From the NCBI RefSeq assembly GCF_053078305.1, contig NZ_CP166879.1: a DNA stretch of 64,000 bases; one strand, 5' to 3'. Each line of letters opens with the position of its first letter. The stretch's first letter is position 1. The position numbers were made by a program, and so were the translations under genes. Positions 10,148-45,886 of the stretch are shown one piece after another. The notes under the pieces were generated by a model. That model saw nothing but the letters and a program-made list of their open reading frames with translations. It ran no database searches and was not told the origin of the DNA.

Positions 10148-12235
10148 ATGTTTGCTTCAGTTAAAGAGCTGGTTGGATTACCGGGAATGCCGGGAACGGA
10201 GCAAGGCGTCCGCTATTCAATCAGGAAGTATGCAACCAGCGAAACCAGCAGACGCCGCCAGGAAGGCAGTAAAGGTTTTGAATACAGCATCGACTGTTTA
10301 CCTGAAGTGACGCAGCAGGCATTGCGTGAGCGCTACGCCCTGCAACTGATGACGCAAAAAGTCGATGAATCACCGGCTCCGGTGGTGACAAAGGCCAGAC
10401 GCTCGCCTGCCGTGGTTGATGCGGTGGAGGCATATCGCGGATCACCACAACTGATGGTTGAACGCCTTAATGCCCTGACTGAAAACCAGCGCCAGGTGGC
10501 TGATGCACGAATCGCGATCGTCAGCGAAGTGATGAAAGTCGCGCAACACCCCGGTTTCAGCTGTGCGAAAGCTATCCGGTTTATCGTTGACAACCTGGCA
10601 CGTTCGCAACTGGACGAGCGCATTGTGGCAATGGTTGAGACGGCGAACGCCAAAAAGGGAAACAGCCGTGCGTTGAGTGAAATAACGCTGAAACGCTGGA
10701 TTGCGGCCTTTAACAAGGCGCAGAACGCCGCTGAACGCCTGCTTTTACTGGCACCGGGTAAGCGCCAGGAAATAAAAGCCGAAGATATTAACTGGCTGCC
10801 CGAATTTCTGGCGCAGTATCGCCAGTCAAACGGCCGACCAATGACCGAGGCTTACGAGGATTTTGTCGCTGAATGGCAGCACCGGCACGCTGATGAGCCT
10901 TATATGCTCGATATCATGCCGTCTTATGACACCATTCGCCGCGCAATGAAGAAACTGCCGGAAGTGGTGAAACAAAAAGGCCGGGTGACCGGCAGTGAAT
11001 ACCGCCAGCTTGAGGGATTCACGCGCCGCGACTGGTCCAGAATGCCGGTGAATTATGTCTGGATTGGTGACGGTCACGGCATGAAGCTGAAATGCGCACA
11101 CCCGGTTCACGGTCGGCCATTTGCACCGGAAGTGACCTTTGTTATCGACGGTGGCACGCGCTTTGTGGTGGGCTGGAGCCTTGACCTGGCTGAAAATGTT
11201 TTCGCCGTAGCCGGTGCCATACAGCACGGCATTCGCCATCACGGCAAACCGTTTCTGTATTACTCGGATAACGGCTCCGGGGAAACCGCCGACATCCTGG
11301 ATAAGGAGGTTGTGGGGATACTGCCGCGACTGGGGATTAATCACCCGACCGGGATTGCCGGTAATCCGCAGGGACGAGGCATTATCGAACGGCTTAACCG
11401 CACATTACCGATGCGCATAGCCCGTAAATACCGCACCTATTTCGGGAAAGGTGCAGATCGCGAGACGTTACGCAAAACCAACCGCGATTTACGCTCGGCA
11501 TTTACTGCCCTGCAACAGGGCAAACGGCTGAACGTCCGGCAGCAGTCAGCGATGCGTGATTTACCGTCCTGGTCTGAACTGATTGATGCCATTCGTGACG
11601 GTGTTGAGTGGTACAACAACCGGCCGCACGATGAATTACCGGTGAAGCCGAACGGCAAGCATTACAGCCCGGCGGAGTTCAGAAAAAAACGCCTGGCGGA
11701 AGAGGACACGGAAATTGAATGGCTGTCCGATGTTGAGCTGCGGGATATGTTCCGGCCGATGGTGGAACGCCCTGTAAGACGCTGTGAAATACGCTGGCTG
11801 AATAATATTTACTACGCGCCCGAGCTGCGTGACGAGCATGGTCGTAAGGTGCTTATCAGCTATGACATTCATGATGCCGAACGAATTACCGTACGTCGCC
11901 TGGATGGCAGCGTGATTTGCGAGGCGGTATGGGACGGTAATAAACGCGAAGCCTTCCCGGTTAGTGCGGAATACTACAAACAGCAGCAACGCCTTAAAGG
12001 CATGCGTAAACGCGCAGAGGAAAAAATCCGTGATGCCGAGGATGAGGTTGTCAACGTGCTGGAGCACAAGCCGCAGGAGCCCTGGCTGGAAAACATCTAT
12101 CGCCCGGTAGGTAATACGGTGGCCGTTCAGCAACCGGTCGCTGACGATGAACCTGATGAAGAATACGAGCGTAATTTCCAGCGGGGATTGCAGTTGCTGG
12201 AAGCGAAATTAAAAGAAAATGACCCGCTGGCCTGA
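10148..12235 (+). CDS. MuA-like DDE transposase
   Basis: 695 aa; position after ner; central integrase-like core; size and order as MuA. Confidence 0.9.
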   Translation: MFASVKELVGLPGMPGTEQGVRYSIRKYATSETSRRRQEGSKGFEYSIDCLPEVTQQALRERYALQLMTQKVDESPAPVVTKARRSPAVVDAVEAYRGSPQLMVERLNALTENQRQVADARIAIVSEVMKVAQHPGFSCAKAIRFIVDNLARSQLDERIVAMVETANAKKGNSRALSEITLKRWIAAFNKAQNAAERLLLLAPGKRQEIKAEDINWLPEFLAQYRQSNGRPMTEAYEDFVAEWQHRHADEPYMLDIMPSYDTIRRAMKKLPEVVKQKGRVTGSEYRQLEGFTRRDWSRMPVNYVWIGDGHGMKLKCAHPVHGRPFAPEVTFVIDGGTRFVVGWSLDLAENVFAVAGAIQHGIRHHGKPFLYYSDNGSGETADILDKEVVGILPRLGINHPTGIAGNPQGRGIIERLNRTLPMRIARKYRTYFGKGADRETLRKTNRDLRSAFTALQQGKRLNVRQQSAMRDLPSWSELIDAIRDGVEWYNNRPHDELPVKPNGKHYSPAEFRKKRLAEEDTEIEWLSDVELRDMFRPMVERPVRRCEIRWLNNIYYAPELRDEHGRKVLISYDIHDAERITVRRLDGSVICEAVWDGNKREAFPVSAEYYKQQQRLKGMRKRAEEKIRDAEDEVVNVLEHKPQEPWLENIYRPVGNTVAVQQPVADDEPDEEYERNFQRGLQLLEAKLKENDPLA

Positions 12236-17677: not shown

Positions 17678-18042
17678 CGGGAGGTGAATGCGTGAGAAGT
17701 TATATTGATAATGAAAAACTGAAGACAATCAGCGACTGTCTTAGCTTGCTGGCAAAAATAAAAGAAACCATTGAAGAGATTAAATTTCAGCTTGAATACG
17801 CACCCTGTGGTGATGATACATGGCGTAACTCTGCCAGAAAAGCACTGGCTGTCTTTCAGAAACAACGCCGGACTGTTGAATACCGCCTTGCTGTATTACG
17901 CCAGGAGGAAAAGGAAAGAAATATAAGATGTCACGAGCGCGTTAATAACTTCCTTGTTCGTGAATTAAAAGAACGTGTGCCGGAGTCGGTATTTTTTGAG
18001 TGTGAGGCTGTTGCCCGTAGCAAAGCACTGGAAACTGATTAA
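17650..18042 (+). CDS. early-region hypothetical protein (start uncertain)
   Basis: 130-aa ORF; likely starts at an internal Met near 17674. Confidence 0.35.
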   Translation: MPYFSFTGMTGGECVRSYIDNEKLKTISDCLSLLAKIKETIEEIKFQLEYAPCGDDTWRNSARKALAVFQKQRRTVEYRLAVLRQEEKERNIRCHERVNNFLVRELKERVPESVFFECEAVARSKALETD

Positions 18043-18054
18043 ACAGGCAGGTGA

Positions 18055-18580: not shown

Positions 18581-18866
18581 TTCTCTGTTGTTCTGGTGCT
18601 TATATATCACATCCTTTTTCGGCGCATTTGTTATTACCCGGTGGTTATGTCGAAAAATCATCTGCTTTTTTGATAAAAGACATCCGGTTGAACGGGCGGC
18701 TGATGCGCTCATTCAGCAGGCCATTGTGTTATATAGCGGTGAATTTTTCTGCCGGATAACAACCAGAGATGGCTGGCACATAATGATTATTCCGCCAACA
18801 CACCATGCCCGGTGGGATGAGGCAGAAAAGGCTTTCCATGTCCGTAAAAAGGTAAATACGGTATGA
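18570..18866 (+). CDS. small protein with N-terminal transmembrane segment
   Basis: 98 aa; hydrophobic N-terminus LLFWCLYITSFFGAFVITRWL. Confidence 0.35.
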   Translation: MDNSSLLFWCLYITSFFGAFVITRWLCRKIICFFDKRHPVERAADALIQQAIVLYSGEFFCRITTRDGWHIMIIPPTHHARWDEAEKAFHVRKKVNTV

Positions 18867-19372
18867 GAGGAAAACTGATATCCGCCATTCATGTGGCAAA
18901 GCGCGAGCTTGCCCTGGATGATGAGACCTACACATTCGTACTACTGGCAGCCACCGGCAAAACCAGTTGCCGGGATATGTCACCCGGTGAGTTATCCCGC
19001 GTGCTGGATGTTTTCAAAAAACGCGGTTTTAAAGTGCGTCAGAAACCGGTTAACCGGGCCTTAAAACCGGGTACGGTGACCGCCAGAATTCGCGCCATCT
19101 GGAAAGTGATGCACCGGCAGGGCTTTATCTCTGATGGTGCGGAAACCGCTCTTAACCGCTGGGTGAAATCGCAGACGGCCGCGCAGAACGGCGGCGAAGG
19201 TGTGGCAAACTGGCAGTGGCTGGAGCAACACCCCGCCCTGGCCTCAGATGTGCTGGAGCGTCTCAAGCGATGGCACCGCCGCAAAATGCTGGCCGCGATG
19301 GGAATGCCCGAACGCACGCTGATGGGGTATGACGCCGTTTGCAGGCAGTATGAAAAATCACTTCCCCGTTAA
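18863..19372 (+). CDS. gemA: GemA-like regulatory protein (Mu gp16 family)
   Basis: 169 aa; last gene before terminator at the end of the early operon; N-terminal region resembles Mu GemA as recalled. Confidence 0.6.
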   Translation: MRGKLISAIHVAKRELALDDETYTFVLLAATGKTSCRDMSPGELSRVLDVFKKRGFKVRQKPVNRALKPGTVTARIRAIWKVMHRQGFISDGAETALNRWVKSQTAAQNGGEGVANWQWLEQHPALASDVLERLKRWHRRKMLAAMGMPERTLMGYDAVCRQYEKSLPR

Positions 19373-19378
19373 CCCCAA

Positions 19379-19407
19379 ATCCCGCCACAACGCGGGATTT
19401 TTATTTT
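19379..19407 (+). terminator. rho-independent terminator at end of early operon
   Basis: hairpin ATCCCGC-CACAAC-GCGGGAT followed by TTTTTATTTT immediately after gemA stop. Confidence 0.7.
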
Positions 19408-19441
19408 AAACTTACCGGGAACGCGAGAACCGGAGGCTGAT

Positions 19442-19867
19442 ATGGCAGAAACTCAGATGAGCATGTTTGGTGGTGACAGTGAGCAACTGCACGCCCTTAT
19501 CGACCGCCTTGATGACATCCCTGATGATGTTCTCAAAAAGAACTGGCCGCGGACCCTGTCAGAACTGGTTGAAGTCACCGGCGCAGAACTTCAGCGTCAG
19601 GGGATTGAGCCGGTACTGGCCGGTAAACTGGCACGCAAGGTGGCTGCGGCTCAGGCAGCCTATATGGGCGGACGGGGTTATTACCTGCCGGTCGGGGAAT
19701 CTCTCTTTGCCGAGCTGCGAAACAATGAGATATTTTCGCGCTGGGACCGGGGCGAGAAGATTGAATCCCTTCGCCGCCATTACCGGATGTCAGAAACCCA
19801 GATTTATACCGTCATACGTGAACAGCGCCGTCTGCATCTGGCAAGAACGCAACCGCCACTTTTCTGA
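19442..19867 (+). CDS. Mor/C-family transcriptional activator (late-gene activator)
   Basis: 141 aa; follows terminator and precedes lysis genes as Mu C; C-terminal HTH (RMSETQIYTVIREQRR). Confidence 0.7.
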   Translation: MAETQMSMFGGDSEQLHALIDRLDDIPDDVLKKNWPRTLSELVEVTGAELQRQGIEPVLAGKLARKVAAAQAAYMGGRGYYLPVGESLFAELRNNEIFSRWDRGEKIESLRRHYRMSETQIYTVIREQRRLHLARTQPPLF

Positions 19868-19938
19868 TATTCCGCAAAGCCTGCCGCCTCTCCTTCACCG
19901 TTACGCTGACTCAGAGAACATCATGAGACAGCGTAACA

Positions 19939-20439
19939 ATGCCAAAACTCCCCGCACCACTGCGTAAAAAGCTGATTGCCCTTGTTCTGGCCGGTGCCGG
20001 GACGTTCACGATTGCCACGCATTACACCGGTTACTGGGAAGGGAAAGAAAACTCCACGTATATCGATCCCACCGGTACACCCACCATCTGTTACGGCCAT
20101 ACCGGCCCGGATGTGAAACCGGGTATGACCCTGACAGATGAAGAATGCCTGGAACTACTGGAAAAGGACATGAAATGGGCCTTTGCGGCCATTGATCGGC
20201 GTGTTCAGGTGCCGCTTACCCGTGGTCAGACGGTGGCGCTGGCTTCGTGGATCTTCTGGGCCGGTGAAACGAACTTTCGCAACTCCACGCTTCTGCGCCT
20301 GATCAATGCCGGGCAGATGCCCGCGTCCTGTAAGCAGTATATCCGCTGGATTTATTCAAAGGGGGTGAAACTTCCCGGCCTTGAGGCCCGCCGTTCGGCG
20401 GATGAATGGTTATGTCGCTACGACTTGCCGAAAGTCTGA
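19939..20439 (+). CDS. endolysin (T4-lysozyme-like muramidase) with probable N-terminal SAR signal-anchor
   Basis: 166 aa; weakly hydrophobic Gly/Ala-rich N-terminus LIALVLAGAGTFTIA then catalytic region; position as Mu lys. Confidence 0.75.
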   Translation: MPKLPAPLRKKLIALVLAGAGTFTIATHYTGYWEGKENSTYIDPTGTPTICYGHTGPDVKPGMTLTDEECLELLEKDMKWAFAAIDRRVQVPLTRGQTVALASWIFWAGETNFRNSTLLRLINAGQMPASCKQYIRWIYSKGVKLPGLEARRSADEWLCRYDLPKV

Positions 20440-27663: not shown

Positions 27664-27838
27664 TTGTTTAAGGTATGCAAATGCATTACCTTACCCCCTT
27701 CAGGCGCGTGTCGTGATTTTCTAACCTGTATTTAACGGGCTTTAAAATCTGCGTGAAGCGCCTTTGCATTTTTCCCTGAAAATACTTCCTGAAATCCCGC
27801 AAAACCCGCCCTGAAAATTCCCGGCTTATGCTGCCGGT
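27664..27838 (+). promoter_or_regulatory. candidate C-dependent late promoter region upstream of protease/scaffold gene (PI-like)
   Basis: 175-bp gap in otherwise tightly packed late genes; three direct CCTGAAA(A)T repeats and a near-palindrome GGTATGCAAATGCATTACC; Mu has a late promoter at this position. Confidence 0.35.
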
Positions 27839-28972
27839 ATGAAGACAGAAAATCACCCAAAAGACGCAAATCGCCCCTCTGGTTTAGCCGTGCTTTCAGC
27901 TTCGCTGACTGCATCCGGCGACGGATGGTGTCAGTTACTGCCAGCAGGCAGGGTAAAGGCCCGTGACGGTCGCCCGGAAAAACCGGCTGAAGGCTGGCTG
28001 ATTAACGAATCCGCCTGCAACCGGATGAAAGCCGGGCTTTCCGCCCTGAATCAGCCGTTACTGATTGATTATGACCATCACTCCATGAATGCGCGGAAAA
28101 ACGGATTCAAGGCCATTGCCGCAGGTTGGGTTAAGCCGGAAAACATCGAATGGCGTGAGGGTCAGGGGATTTTCATTAAACCTGAATGGACGCCGCAGGC
28201 CCAAAAACATATTGATGACCGTGAATATGCCTATCTGTCTGCGTATATGCATTATTTCGCTGACACCGGGGAACCCTACCTGTTGCGCATGGCTTCCCTG
28301 ACGAATGATCCAGGTATTACGGGTATGAACCCTGTCGCAGCACTCAGTGCTGACGATCTCTATGTAGTTTCCCCTTCTCAGGAGCAACACCCCATGAATG
28401 AGCAATTACGCCAGTTGCTGACGGCGCTCGGTCTGACCGTGGCTGATGGTGACGAATTTACGCCGGAGCTGGGCACGGCAGCGCTGTCTGCCCTCACCGG
28501 GATCAAAACCCGTGCGGATGCACACGACAACCTGAAAACACAGGTCGCCTGTCTGTCGGCAGAGCTGGAAACTGCAAAAGGCACACCGGCTGGCGGCAGT
28601 ATTGATCTGACGAAATACGTGCCCGTTGAAACGTATAACGCCCTGCGTACCGAATACGTTGCGCTGTCGGCGCAGCACGGCAGCACCACGCTGGAGCAGT
28701 TGCTGGACAAGGCCGAGTCCGAAGGACGCATCTTCAAAAGTGAACGCGGCTATCTGGAACAACTGGGCGGGCAGATTGGCGTGGCGGCACTTTCTGCACA
28801 GCTTGACGCCCGACAGCCGGTTGCGGCCCTGACCGGTCTTCAGACCGACACCGTGACCGTGCCGGATAAAAAGACTGCCACCGCTGTGCTGTCGGCTGAA
28901 GATATCGCGGCCGCCAAACTGCTGGGTAAAACCGAAGCCGAGTTCCTGAAAATGAAAGAGGAAATGCAATAA
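27839..28972 (+). CDS. head maturation protease / scaffold (Mu I family)
   Basis: 377 aa; N-terminal protease-like region, C-terminal helical Ala/Leu-rich scaffold-like region; order I-T. Confidence 0.8.
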   Translation: MKTENHPKDANRPSGLAVLSASLTASGDGWCQLLPAGRVKARDGRPEKPAEGWLINESACNRMKAGLSALNQPLLIDYDHHSMNARKNGFKAIAAGWVKPENIEWREGQGIFIKPEWTPQAQKHIDDREYAYLSAYMHYFADTGEPYLLRMASLTNDPGITGMNPVAALSADDLYVVSPSQEQHPMNEQLRQLLTALGLTVADGDEFTPELGTAALSALTGIKTRADAHDNLKTQVACLSAELETAKGTPAGGSIDLTKYVPVETYNALRTEYVALSAQHGSTTLEQLLDKAESEGRIFKSERGYLEQLGGQIGVAALSAQLDARQPVAALTGLQTDTVTVPDKKTATAVLSAEDIAAAKLLGKTEAEFLKMKEEMQ

Positions 28973-43738: not shown

Positions 43739-43828
43739 GACGCTCCCTTTGTTGGGCCTTTACTGAATTAACGCAAAATGGCGTTTATCGGTCTGTGGAT
43801 ATGATAATTCTGTTTATTCAGGAACAGG

Positions 43829-45886
43829 ATGAATATTATGACGTCCAAATGGGTTCAACTATCATCAATGCCCGGAAACTTTACCGTTAAAGTTTCCGGT
43901 GGTACAGCGGCATTTCTTGAGGCTCCCTTTCCTCCTGCTGAAACGAAAGGAGGAATGACATTTGCTGACTGTCTCATCAGTTTTAATACACAGGATTGCC
44001 TGTGGGTAAGGCCAGTATCCGGTGATCCGAACGTGGAAATTACCGGAGCGGGTATTGGTGCTGTCATTCCGTTAAGTGCTGATGTTGCCGGTACTACTGA
44101 ACCGTCAGACTGGGATAATGCAGAAACACATACCCGTCCGGCAGGAAATGAAACGGCTTCCAGCTCCCCTTCCTGGTATTACGTGATTGTTATAGCCGGC
44201 CAGTCCAATGCTTCATCTTATGGTGAAGGGTTGCCCCTTCCGGATTCTTATGATCGTCCTGATCCACGTATTATGCAGCTGGCACGCAGGAATACACAAA
44301 CCCCCGGAGGTATTCCCTGCAAATACAATGAAATCATTCCAGCAGATCACTGCCTTCATGATGTTCAGAATATGAGTCTGCTGAACCATCCAAAAGCAGA
44401 CCTGAAAAAAGGGCAGTATGGTTGTGTGGGGCAGGGACTTCATATTGCGAAAAAAGTATTACCGGTGATTCCTGCTGATGCCGGGATTTTACTGGTTCCC
44501 TGTGCCCGTGGCGGCTCTGCTTTTACAACCGGCGCAGTTGGCTCATTCGATCCGGCAAGTGGTGCAGCCGAGGCGTCACTACGCTGGGGAGTGGATACCC
44601 CACTGTATCAGGATCTTGTCAGTCGAACTAAAGCGGCACTTGAGGCGAATCCAAAGAATGTGCTGTTATCTGTCGTATGGATTCAGGGGGAAGGAGACCT
44701 TAAAGCGACCCCGGCCCAGCATGGTGCCCAGTTTACTGCGATGGTGAAAAAATTCCGTGCGGATCTTGGGGCTTTCTCCGGTCAGTGTATTGGTGGTTCA
44801 TCAGACAGTGTGCCGTGGTTATGTGGTGACACAACCTATGACTGGAAAGAGAAGAACCCGGCGGCATATGAAACCATTTATAGCGGATATAAAAACCGGG
44901 CTTCCGAGAACATTCACTTTGTTCCACTGATGCACGATGAGTTCGGTAATAAAACCGCGACCAACCTGCCGGAGCACGACCCGGATATCGCTTCTGCCGG
45001 GTATTATGGTGCGGAATCACGGGGAGATGGCAACTGGACAACAGCATCCAGGGCAACCCATTTTAGCTCCTGGGCGCGCCGTTTTCTGGTCTCAGATCGT
45101 TTTGCATCAGCAATTCTTAAATATGCAGGTCTGACCTCTGCATTTATTGCCGGTGTGGCCCCTGATGGTGAAACCCTGCCTCAGCCCGCGCCGGGTGGGA
45201 AACCGGAAGCGCCGACAGGTAGTCAGCCAGGAGGCAGTGAGTCCCCCCATCCGACATCCCCGTCACTCCGTACGCTGCTTTCACTTAAAGCATCAGCAGG
45301 AGAAGCCCCGGCTCAGGGCTGGAAAATTACAGATGGTACAATCCAGCTGACGGACGAAGGTAAAGCGTTGACCGTATCCAAACAAAGCGGAAAAACCTGG
45401 ACGCTTACCCATGGAACTGATGCAGCCGGTGAACTTCTGAAGCATGGTGGTCAGTTGACCTGTAAATTCCGTCTGTCAGGTGAAGTAAAAGAAGGCCAGT
45501 TTGCTCTGGGTATTTACCTCCACACCGATACGGTCCCGGAAGGTGTAACCATGAGTGGTACAGGCACACCGTTCCTGATGGCGTATTATCTCCAGACAAC
45601 AGGCGGCCAGTTAAATCTGATGCACCATAAAACAGGGGGGAATACGAAACTGGGATCATTTGGAGCCTACAATAACCAGTGGCATACACTTGTCCTGAAG
45701 TTTACGGCGGGAAGTGCCCAGGTAACGCCTGTGCTGGATGGCACTCCGGGCCAGGCATTCCAGATGGTGAAAGATGCACTTTCCCCTGCCAAAGATACGC
45801 TGACACTGACAGATGTCACCAAAGGGGCAACTTATGGCGTGTCTTTTGAGAGCGTTGTCCTTGAGGTTAATACCCCTGCGGCATAA
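43829..45886 (+). CDS. cargo protein with central SGNH / sialate-O-acetylesterase-like domain and C-terminal beta-sandwich domain
   Basis: 685 aa; GQSNASSYGE motif after a hydrophobic strand, typical of SASA/DUF303 esterases; Pro/Gly-rich linker PQPAPGGKPEAPTGSQPGGSESP; Mu has no gene here. Confidence 0.6.
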   Translation: MNIMTSKWVQLSSMPGNFTVKVSGGTAAFLEAPFPPAETKGGMTFADCLISFNTQDCLWVRPVSGDPNVEITGAGIGAVIPLSADVAGTTEPSDWDNAETHTRPAGNETASSSPSWYYVIVIAGQSNASSYGEGLPLPDSYDRPDPRIMQLARRNTQTPGGIPCKYNEIIPADHCLHDVQNMSLLNHPKADLKKGQYGCVGQGLHIAKKVLPVIPADAGILLVPCARGGSAFTTGAVGSFDPASGAAEASLRWGVDTPLYQDLVSRTKAALEANPKNVLLSVVWIQGEGDLKATPAQHGAQFTAMVKKFRADLGAFSGQCIGGSSDSVPWLCGDTTYDWKEKNPAAYETIYSGYKNRASENIHFVPLMHDEFGNKTATNLPEHDPDIASAGYYGAESRGDGNWTTASRATHFSSWARRFLVSDRFASAILKYAGLTSAFIAGVAPDGETLPQPAPGGKPEAPTGSQPGGSESPHPTSPSLRTLLSLKASAGEAPAQGWKITDGTIQLTDEGKALTVSKQSGKTWTLTHGTDAAGELLKHGGQLTCKFRLSGEVKEGQFALGIYLHTDTVPEGVTMSGTGTPFLMAYYLQTTGGQLNLMHHKTGGNTKLGSFGAYNNQWHTLVLKFTAGSAQVTPVLDGTPGQAFQMVKDALSPAKDTLTLTDVTKGATYGVSFESVVLEVNTPAA

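Follow-up and report, generated by a model that had tools for sequence, protein, structure and literature searches.

A hairpin reaching from the predicted late promoter to the start codon of the Sp18 endolysin gene as a probable transcript-selective translational lock

The stretch of DNA analysed here (the window: 64,000 nt of contig NZ_CP166879.1, assembly GCF_053078305.1) contains Sp18, a Mu-like prophage of E. coli O157. Over the 1.2 kb surrounding the repeat described below, it is 99.8% identical both to the Sp18 of strain Sakai (E. coli O157:H7) and to some 200 further E. coli genomes; the intactness of Sp18 was inferred earlier from its sequence (PMC2669165). The local gene order starts with gemA (18863-19372), followed on the plus strand by a terminator-like dyad (19377-19400; AAATCCCGC-N6-GCGGGATTT and then a T-run), the sole terminator-like site that a terminator scan finds in 19300-20300. 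Next comes a gene for a late transcription activator of the Mor/C family (19442-19867, plus strand; 141 aa, Pfam Mor E=2.8e-32). Its product shares 39% identity with the late activator Mu C and 27% with Mu Mor, and it is the only member of the family in the window, where no second Mor/C homologue was found. After a gap of 71 nt follows lys (19939-20439, plus strand), encoding an endolysin of the Phage_lysozyme family (166 aa, Pfam E=6.3e-37). The product can be aligned with Mu gp22 (a SAR endolysin by annotation) from its first residue on, has a Mu-type SAR-like segment at its N-terminus and keeps the catalytic residues E34, D43 and T49, which are invariant in that alignment. RefSeq uses the identical start codon, the ATG at 19939-19941. 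Downstream of lys lie a spanin-type (LysC-family) lysis gene, a DksA/TraR zinc-finger gene and a DUF2730 gene. The scan predicts no terminator in the gap that separates the activator stop codon from lys (19868-19938).

This gap contains an inverted repeat whose outer 9 bp are perfect: GTTACGCTG (19900-19908) is the exact reverse complement of CAGCGTAAC (19929-19937), 20 nt away. A preliminary description of the same DNA had reported just such a repeat, with a spacer of about 20 nt and its end a few bases short of the lys ATG, and in this it was right; only its start coordinate of 19880 has to be moved, as the repeat itself begins 20 nt further downstream. Extended inwards, the repeat has arms of 14 nt, 19900-19913 (GTTACGCTGACTCA) and 19924-19937 (TGAGACAGCGTAAC) on the plus strand, which are complementary at 13 of 14 positions (the exception being one A.A mismatch) and enclose a loop of 10 nt (19914-19923, plus strand). 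The right arm ends at 19937, one base short of the ATG, and overlaps the sole sequence resembling a Shine-Dalgarno (SD) site, GAGA (19925-19928); the computed hairpin buries positions -15 to -2 relative to the lys AUG. The junction of loop and right arm also holds an out-of-frame upstream ATG, which opens a 14-codon reading frame (19923-19967; MRQRNNAKTPRTTA) overlapping the lys start. GAGAA stands 4 nt 5' of this ATG, and the ATG is kept across the clade of close relatives with 86% identity.

Folding of the leader RNA, a check that the preliminary description had proposed, yields energies between -20 and -25 kcal/mol (z between -4.3 and -6.1), in agreement with a stable structure. The 103-nt intergenic stretch reaches -25 kcal/mol (z = -4.3, 0 of 200 shuffles being as good) and the 46-nt core has a minimum free energy (MFE) of -20.1 kcal/mol (z = -6.1). 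Assignment to a known RNA family was rejected: no Rfam 15 covariance model matches 19300-20100 at E<=1. By counts alone, the repeat is within chance for the window as a whole. There are 33 perfect 9-bp repeats with a spacer of 3-30 nt against 7.6 in shuffles, and one repeat with 14-nt arms and at most one mismatch against 0.53 expected per 64 kb. We consider it non-random because of its exact placement relative to the promoter and the start codon, together with the recurrence of the same geometry in different sequences among relatives. Within the Sp18 clade (86% identity) the stem has no substitutions, and the variable sites in 19900-19937 are confined to the internal mismatch and one loop base. 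The activator gene and the upstream spacer are 72-78% identical in the same clade; however, lys itself is about 93% identical, so that conservation of the stem is suggestive rather than decisive.

The DNA of the left arm coincides with the core of a predicted late promoter. Its putative -10 hexamer, TACGCT, occupies 19902-19907 within the arm, and a predicted activator-binding box (CTGATATTCCGCAAAGCCTGCC) lies at 19864-19885, both on the plus strand. A pair of sigma-70 -35 and -10 elements was not found anywhere in 19300-20300, which is expected because the promoter would be activator-dependent. A second late promoter of Sp18 is recognised at 27789-27832 (plus strand; box CTGAAATCCCGCAAAACCCGCC, 16 nt, TATGCT), 5' of a homologue of gene I with 52% identity to Mu I. 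The two boxes (19864-19885 and 27789-27810) match at 18 of 22 positions and have identical 16-nt spacing to a TAyGCT hexamer. In eight haplotypes of the clade the lys box is conserved and the spacer behind it varies.

To place the start site, the -10 hexamers and +1 positions of Mu were reconstructed from the GenBank promoter features together with statements in the literature (PMC2582627). Mu has four annotated late-promoter features of 67 nt each, in which TAGACT, CAAACT, TATCCT and TAAGAT align in register at columns 42-47. At Pmom, ACCACA lies 19 bp from the -10 hexamer; Mu C binds a 16-bp imperfect dyad centred at -43.5, which overlaps the -35 region, and its footprint extends from -30 to -55 (PMC2582627). 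With the Pmom dyad at -43.5, +1 falls on column 54, 7 nt past the hexamer; together with the 19-bp spacing this therefore sets the hexamers at -12 to -7 and +1 seven bases after. By the same reckoning, +1 of Plys (the C-dependent lys promoter of Mu, situated in the C-lys gap) is the A of CCATC-A-GAGAA, where Sp18 has GTTACGCTGACTCAGAGAAC. The Sp18 hexamer TACGCT aligns with TAGACT of Mu Plys, and TCAGAGAA at the start site is common to both. Carried over to Sp18, the predicted late lys transcription start is 19914 (plus or minus 1-2 nt, plus strand), the first base of the loop. The box then spans about -50 to -29, agreeing with the footprint of Mu C, and the left arm, the loop and the right arm correspond to predicted positions -14 to -1, +1 to +10 and +11 to +24, respectively. 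The left-arm DNA is thus predicted to fit a Mu-type C-dependent late promoter (TAnnnT, no -35, shared box at about -30 to -55), such that the promoter (hexamer 19902-19907, +1 near 19914) would lie within the DNA of the hairpin's 5' strand. Derived from Mu, the start site may be off by a few bases, or wrong. The spacing between box and hexamer in the Sp18 group is unlike that of the Mu group.

If the left arm forms positions -14 to -1 and transcription starts at the first loop base, the late lys mRNA should be without the left arm. On this basis we propose that the repeat probably serves as a transcript-selective lock on translation of the endolysin, the late promoter being contained in the DNA of the hairpin's 5' strand. 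RNA polymerase would start near 19914 on the activator-dependent lys promoter (TACGCT), giving a late mRNA with an open leader of 25 nt and the ATG at +26, which would be translated. RNA entering from upstream, either the transcript of the activator gene or early read-through, would contain both arms, fold, and not permit initiation on lys. Such read-through is assumed because no terminator is predicted behind the activator gene. The stop codon of that gene (19865-19867) is 32 nt from the stem, a distance at which a terminating ribosome should not melt it. In this way the lock would stop the Sec-exported SAR endolysin from being produced ahead of the switch-on of the late genes; more speculatively, the untranslated lys segment might also invite Rho-dependent termination.

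Predicted energies are in line with this proposal. Opening the initiation region is predicted to cost 14.7 kcal/mol on the read-through RNA against 4.3 kcal/mol on the short late RNA, of which the 25-nt leader is predicted to be nearly unstructured. The two costs thus differ by 10.4 kcal/mol, against 1.3 +/- 3.1 for 93 control genes (other genes of Mu and Sp18), only one of which has a higher value. An mRNA hairpin occluding the ribosome-binding site had been one suggestion of the preliminary description: the opening cost speaks for it on the longer RNA, whereas the mRNA made from the lys promoter itself is predicted to lack the hairpin.

Further activator-lys junctions were gathered by exhaustive protein search, contig look-ups and scans of viral contigs, and represent about 12 lineages whose activators are 39-66% identical to that of Sp18. 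A word-indexed protein search returned only relatives above 80% identity, whereas the exhaustive search of representatives reached relatives at 40-57%; a profile scan of genome contigs for distant loci contributed one locus, from Edwardsiella anguillarum. Several of the loci P0093-P0098 have no lys downstream and were left out as uninformative. Also left out, as not comparable, were Pasteurella phage Pmp9, Shewanella MuM16-1 and Pseudoalteromonas HS6, in which the lysis genes or the layout are of another kind. Pmp9 (L067, about 1650-1701) solves the junction in another way: a perfect 13-bp hairpin with a T-run, a canonical terminator, abuts the ATG of the amidase gene that lies behind its late activator. 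Pairings were taken from the fold of each sequence because a MAFFT alignment from hexamer to ATG was out of register, matching the internal ATG of Sp18 with the start codons of the others.

In all 14 sequences (about 12 lineages) a TAnnnT hexamer occurs 27-33 nt before the lys start. Its distance from the box is fixed: ATCCC plus 25 nt in the Mu-type group, CCGCAA plus 30 nt in the Sp18-type group. Likewise, in 14 of 14 the MFE fold from hexamer to start pairs the region of -10 to +1 with the initiation region, through 6 to 15 base pairs. The arm sequences vary among lineages and the geometry is kept. Next to GTTACGCTGACTCA and TGAGACAGCGTAAC in Sp18, the 5' and 3' arms are TTTATCCTGAGTCGA and TCGACTGAGCGATAAA in L040, TTATCC.GTTCG and CGAACGGATAG in Edwardsiella (L045), TCCTTG and TAAGGA (the Shine-Dalgarno sequence itself) in L036, GUUACUCU and GGAGUGAC (with two G.U pairs) in L086, CGUACCCUGU and ACAG-C-GGUAUG (covering the AUG) in L093, and UUCUGUCGUUA and UAACGGACAGAA in L094. 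At position 4 of the hexamer, G-C in Sp18 is replaced by U-A in L086, a compensatory change, and two U-A pairs become U.G. Two relatives show peculiarities of their own. L055, from the lineage of L036, has ATA instead of ATG as lys start codon and an extra base in the hairpin loop (about 1350-1360), and is probably a decaying prophage. L061 (about 1326-1400) has a tandem 9-nt unit (AGCCCCAAA) in at least seven copies at the 5' end of the endolysin gene; this expansion is in frame and would add repeated Pro-Lys-Ser residues ahead of the SAR segment.

Compared with 2000 dinucleotide shuffles, the pairing is significant (p<0.05) in 10 of 13 relatives, and Fisher's combined p with Sp18 excluded is 1.8e-10, although the lineages share ancestry and are not fully independent. 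The weakest hairpins are those of L063 (p=0.26), L086 (p=0.18) and Mu Plys (p=0.06); the strongest stem of the set is that of Sp18. With real ribosome-site regions as null, 0 of 93 do as well for Sp18 and for L040. With other 15-mers from the same locus the values are 0/742 for Sp18 and 0.004 for L040, and another three lie at 0.03-0.05. A duplex-energy test with a narrow ribosome-binding window undervalued the pairings of Mu, L060 and L063, which reach the start codon, and was rerun with a wider window and within-locus controls.

These figures also bear on the possibility that the repeat has no dedicated function and combines chance with pyrimidine-rich -10 hexamers that resemble anti-Shine-Dalgarno sequences. 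One such repeat per 64 kb is indeed within chance, TATCC/GGATA pairing recurs in several lineages, and three lineages are not significant. The pairing is inflated in some lineages because a TATCC hexamer is inherently part-complementary to a GGA-type Shine-Dalgarno sequence. Sp18 is outside this inflation: its right arm (CAGCGTAAC) does not resemble an SD site but still complements the -10 region exactly. Considering in addition the combined p over the relatives, the control with real ribosome-binding regions for Sp18 and L040, and the occurrence of the same design at the Mu promoter PI (see below), we regard a repeat without function as unlikely.

Comparison with Mu shows how far the arrangement is shared. 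Mu Plys resembles the Sp18 promoter in gene order (C, then lys), in its box near -43.5, its non-consensus TAnnnT hexamer and lack of a -35, in the start-site sequence TCAGAGAA and in a leader of about 24-25 nt. Differences concern the box sequence, the spacing between box and hexamer, and the single Mor/C protein of Sp18. The stem of Mu Plys is also much shorter, a 7-bp pairing of GCCATCA with TGATGGC (p about 0.05-0.06) against 13 bp in Sp18; in the Mu genome (L051, AF083977) the two segments lie at 10450-10456 (-6 to +1) and 10478-10484, the latter containing the lys ATG, and form a weak hairpin of the Sp18 kind. Furthermore, Mu has a predicted terminator between C and lys, whereas Sp18 has none. 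Most relatives are like Mu in this respect, with a terminator-like hairpin right after the activator gene, and in those that have one the proposed lock may be redundant.

The control gene with the highest read-through penalty among the 93 is Mu gene I, which is also situated just behind a C-dependent promoter. In its leader (L051, about 18022-18052), CUGACUGCUCA begins in the -10 hexamer, extends to about +1 and is paired with UGAGCAGCAGG, which covers the SD; the stem reaches -14.7 kcal/mol (z = -4.2). For the gene I homologue of Sp18, the hexamer TATGCT (27827-27832, within 27789-27841) predicts a start near 27839, which is the A of its only plausible ATG, and there is no Shine-Dalgarno sequence; going by these positions, its mRNA may be leaderless. 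A 5-bp GC stem (CCGGC at 27821-27825, GCCGG at 27833-27837) flanks the -10 hexamer on both sides and stops 1 nt short of the ATG.

Two more sites in the window recall late promoters. The half-site of the terminator dyad behind gemA equals the late-promoter box AAATCCCGC at 27793, and the dyad is followed at late-promoter spacing by TATTTT (19365-19441); judged from this arrangement, the single Mor/C activator of Sp18 may act on its own promoter. Mu offers a parallel, as its predicted terminator after mor lies within the annotated Mor-dependent middle promoter. The other site (43763-43840) is a weaker box with TATGAT, a candidate promoter after a Gin-like invertase gene in the position of Mu Pmom. 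It precedes the gene of a 685-aa SASA-esterase/DUF6645 protein, located where Mu has com/mom.

The com/mom genes of Mu are also the model for another explanation, namely that the hairpin lies in the 5' UTR of the late lys mRNA itself and either throttles translation or needs a factor to open it, as Com does for mom. Sp18 lys and Mu com/mom are alike in that a Mu-type phage has a hairpin where translation of a dangerous late gene is initiated, the hairpin in Sp18 is stable, and the annotation of Mu includes a device of similar kind, in which Com activates the translation of mom. According to the annotation, however, the mom hairpin is part of the mRNA proper and is opened by Com, whereas the escape predicted for Sp18 depends on the choice of start site and requires no trans-acting factor. 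A 5' UTR of this kind would require a start 5' of 19900. The only conserved -10-like hexamer is within the left arm and is spaced as in Mu and as at the second Sp18 promoter, no other sigma-70-like promoter was found in 19300-20300, and no com-like gene is evident near lys. We therefore think it quite improbable that the late mRNA contains the whole hairpin.

Slightly less probable still is an action of the hairpin on the mRNA of the upstream activator gene, as a 3' stabiliser, a processing site (for example for RNase III), a pause site or a terminator. It is true that the hairpin lies 32 nt past the activator stop codon with no other structure between. But this would not account for two constant features of the junctions, a right arm that abuts or covers the lys start and a left arm that covers the -10 hexamer, and an interrupted stem of 14 bp is short for RNase III. 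An intrinsic (Rho-independent) terminator was rejected: the stem is followed by AATGCCAAAAC and not by a U-tract, and the scan is silent there.

The preliminary description had alternatively offered an operator in the late promoter, and more generally the repeat might be a DNA palindrome, the site of a dimeric repressor or another protein, extending from -14 to +24 of the late promoter. The overlap with the core promoter and start site fits this, as does the near-perfect symmetry in Sp18, by which both strands fold equally well. No recognisable operator emerges, however. Close matches to the half-site (at most 3 mismatches) within the 64 kb are limited to the two arms, by which an operator repeated in the prophage was rejected; a binding site of the Mor/C activator was rejected too, the repeat being centred near +5 instead of the expected -43.5 and the activator box sitting elsewhere (19864-19885). 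The right arm would be unneeded for promoter activation because promoter bases -60 to +8 are enough in Mu, Plys included (PMC2582627). Among relatives, arm sequences are lineage-specific with the geometry kept, and G.U pairs occur. In addition, 10 of 12 lineages show better folding of the sense than of the antisense strand (Wilcoxon p=0.036), a point in favour of RNA structure rather than a palindrome in the DNA. Of all explanations weighed here, a protein-binding palindrome is the one we find hardest to credit.

A transcript-selective lock, our preferred reading, has a close precedent in gene e of phage T4. There, the longer early transcripts fold a hairpin that sequesters the SD and/or AUG, and the late promoter lies in the DNA of the hairpin's 5' strand, so that late transcripts are without this strand and are translated (PMC3014915). 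The stated purpose is to avoid premature lysis, and the same design is found at soc, 49 and I-TevI (PMC3014915). In the modelled longer transcript of Sp18, too, a stable helix covers the SD and start, which is the structural hallmark of the gene e type. Gene class (endolysin) and, as predicted for Sp18, geometry are the same in both phages. Differences lie in the transcription machinery and the lifestyle: T4 uses gp55-dependent late promoters (TATAAATA), whereas Sp18 has a predicted sigma-70 promoter with a Mor/C-family activator and a -10 hexamer inside the stem, and is, unlike T4, a temperate transposable phage with a SAR-type endolysin. A related principle, fold-back inhibition of transposase translation on read-through transcripts, reportedly operates in IS10 and IS50. 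Transcripts from outside carry the complement of the ribosome-binding site, and those initiated at the promoter of the element itself begin within the structure and so avoid it. That system guards the transposase from external promoters and is not a timing device in a phage cascade.

In the literature searched, which covered little of the older Mu work, no description of such a lock in Mu or Mu-like phages was found. Tentatively, the recurrence in about 12 lys lineages and at Mu gene I could reflect a general, previously unreported design rule of the Mu family, in which the Sp18 hairpin would be the sole barrier and the timing of lysis would depend on it; we hold this broader claim with less confidence than the lock itself. 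The practical impact is modest and the principle is already known. For annotation, the lock would be a warning that a palindrome abutting a start codon 3' of an activator-dependent promoter is to be taken neither for an operator nor for a constitutive UTR structure. If the lock is real, the 5' end of lys mRNA is predicted near 19914, and mutations in the stem would de-repress lys on read-through RNA only. With a single Mor/C activator and no terminator behind its gene, Sp18 would then have the hairpin as the barrier that separates this gene from a SAR endolysin needing no holin. It would explain how a lysis gene can lie directly behind the late-activator gene, with no terminator, and premature lysis still be avoided. 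It would also extend the solution found for T4 lysozyme to unrelated, temperate, sigma-70-dependent phages, as a case of convergent evolution on the same class of gene.
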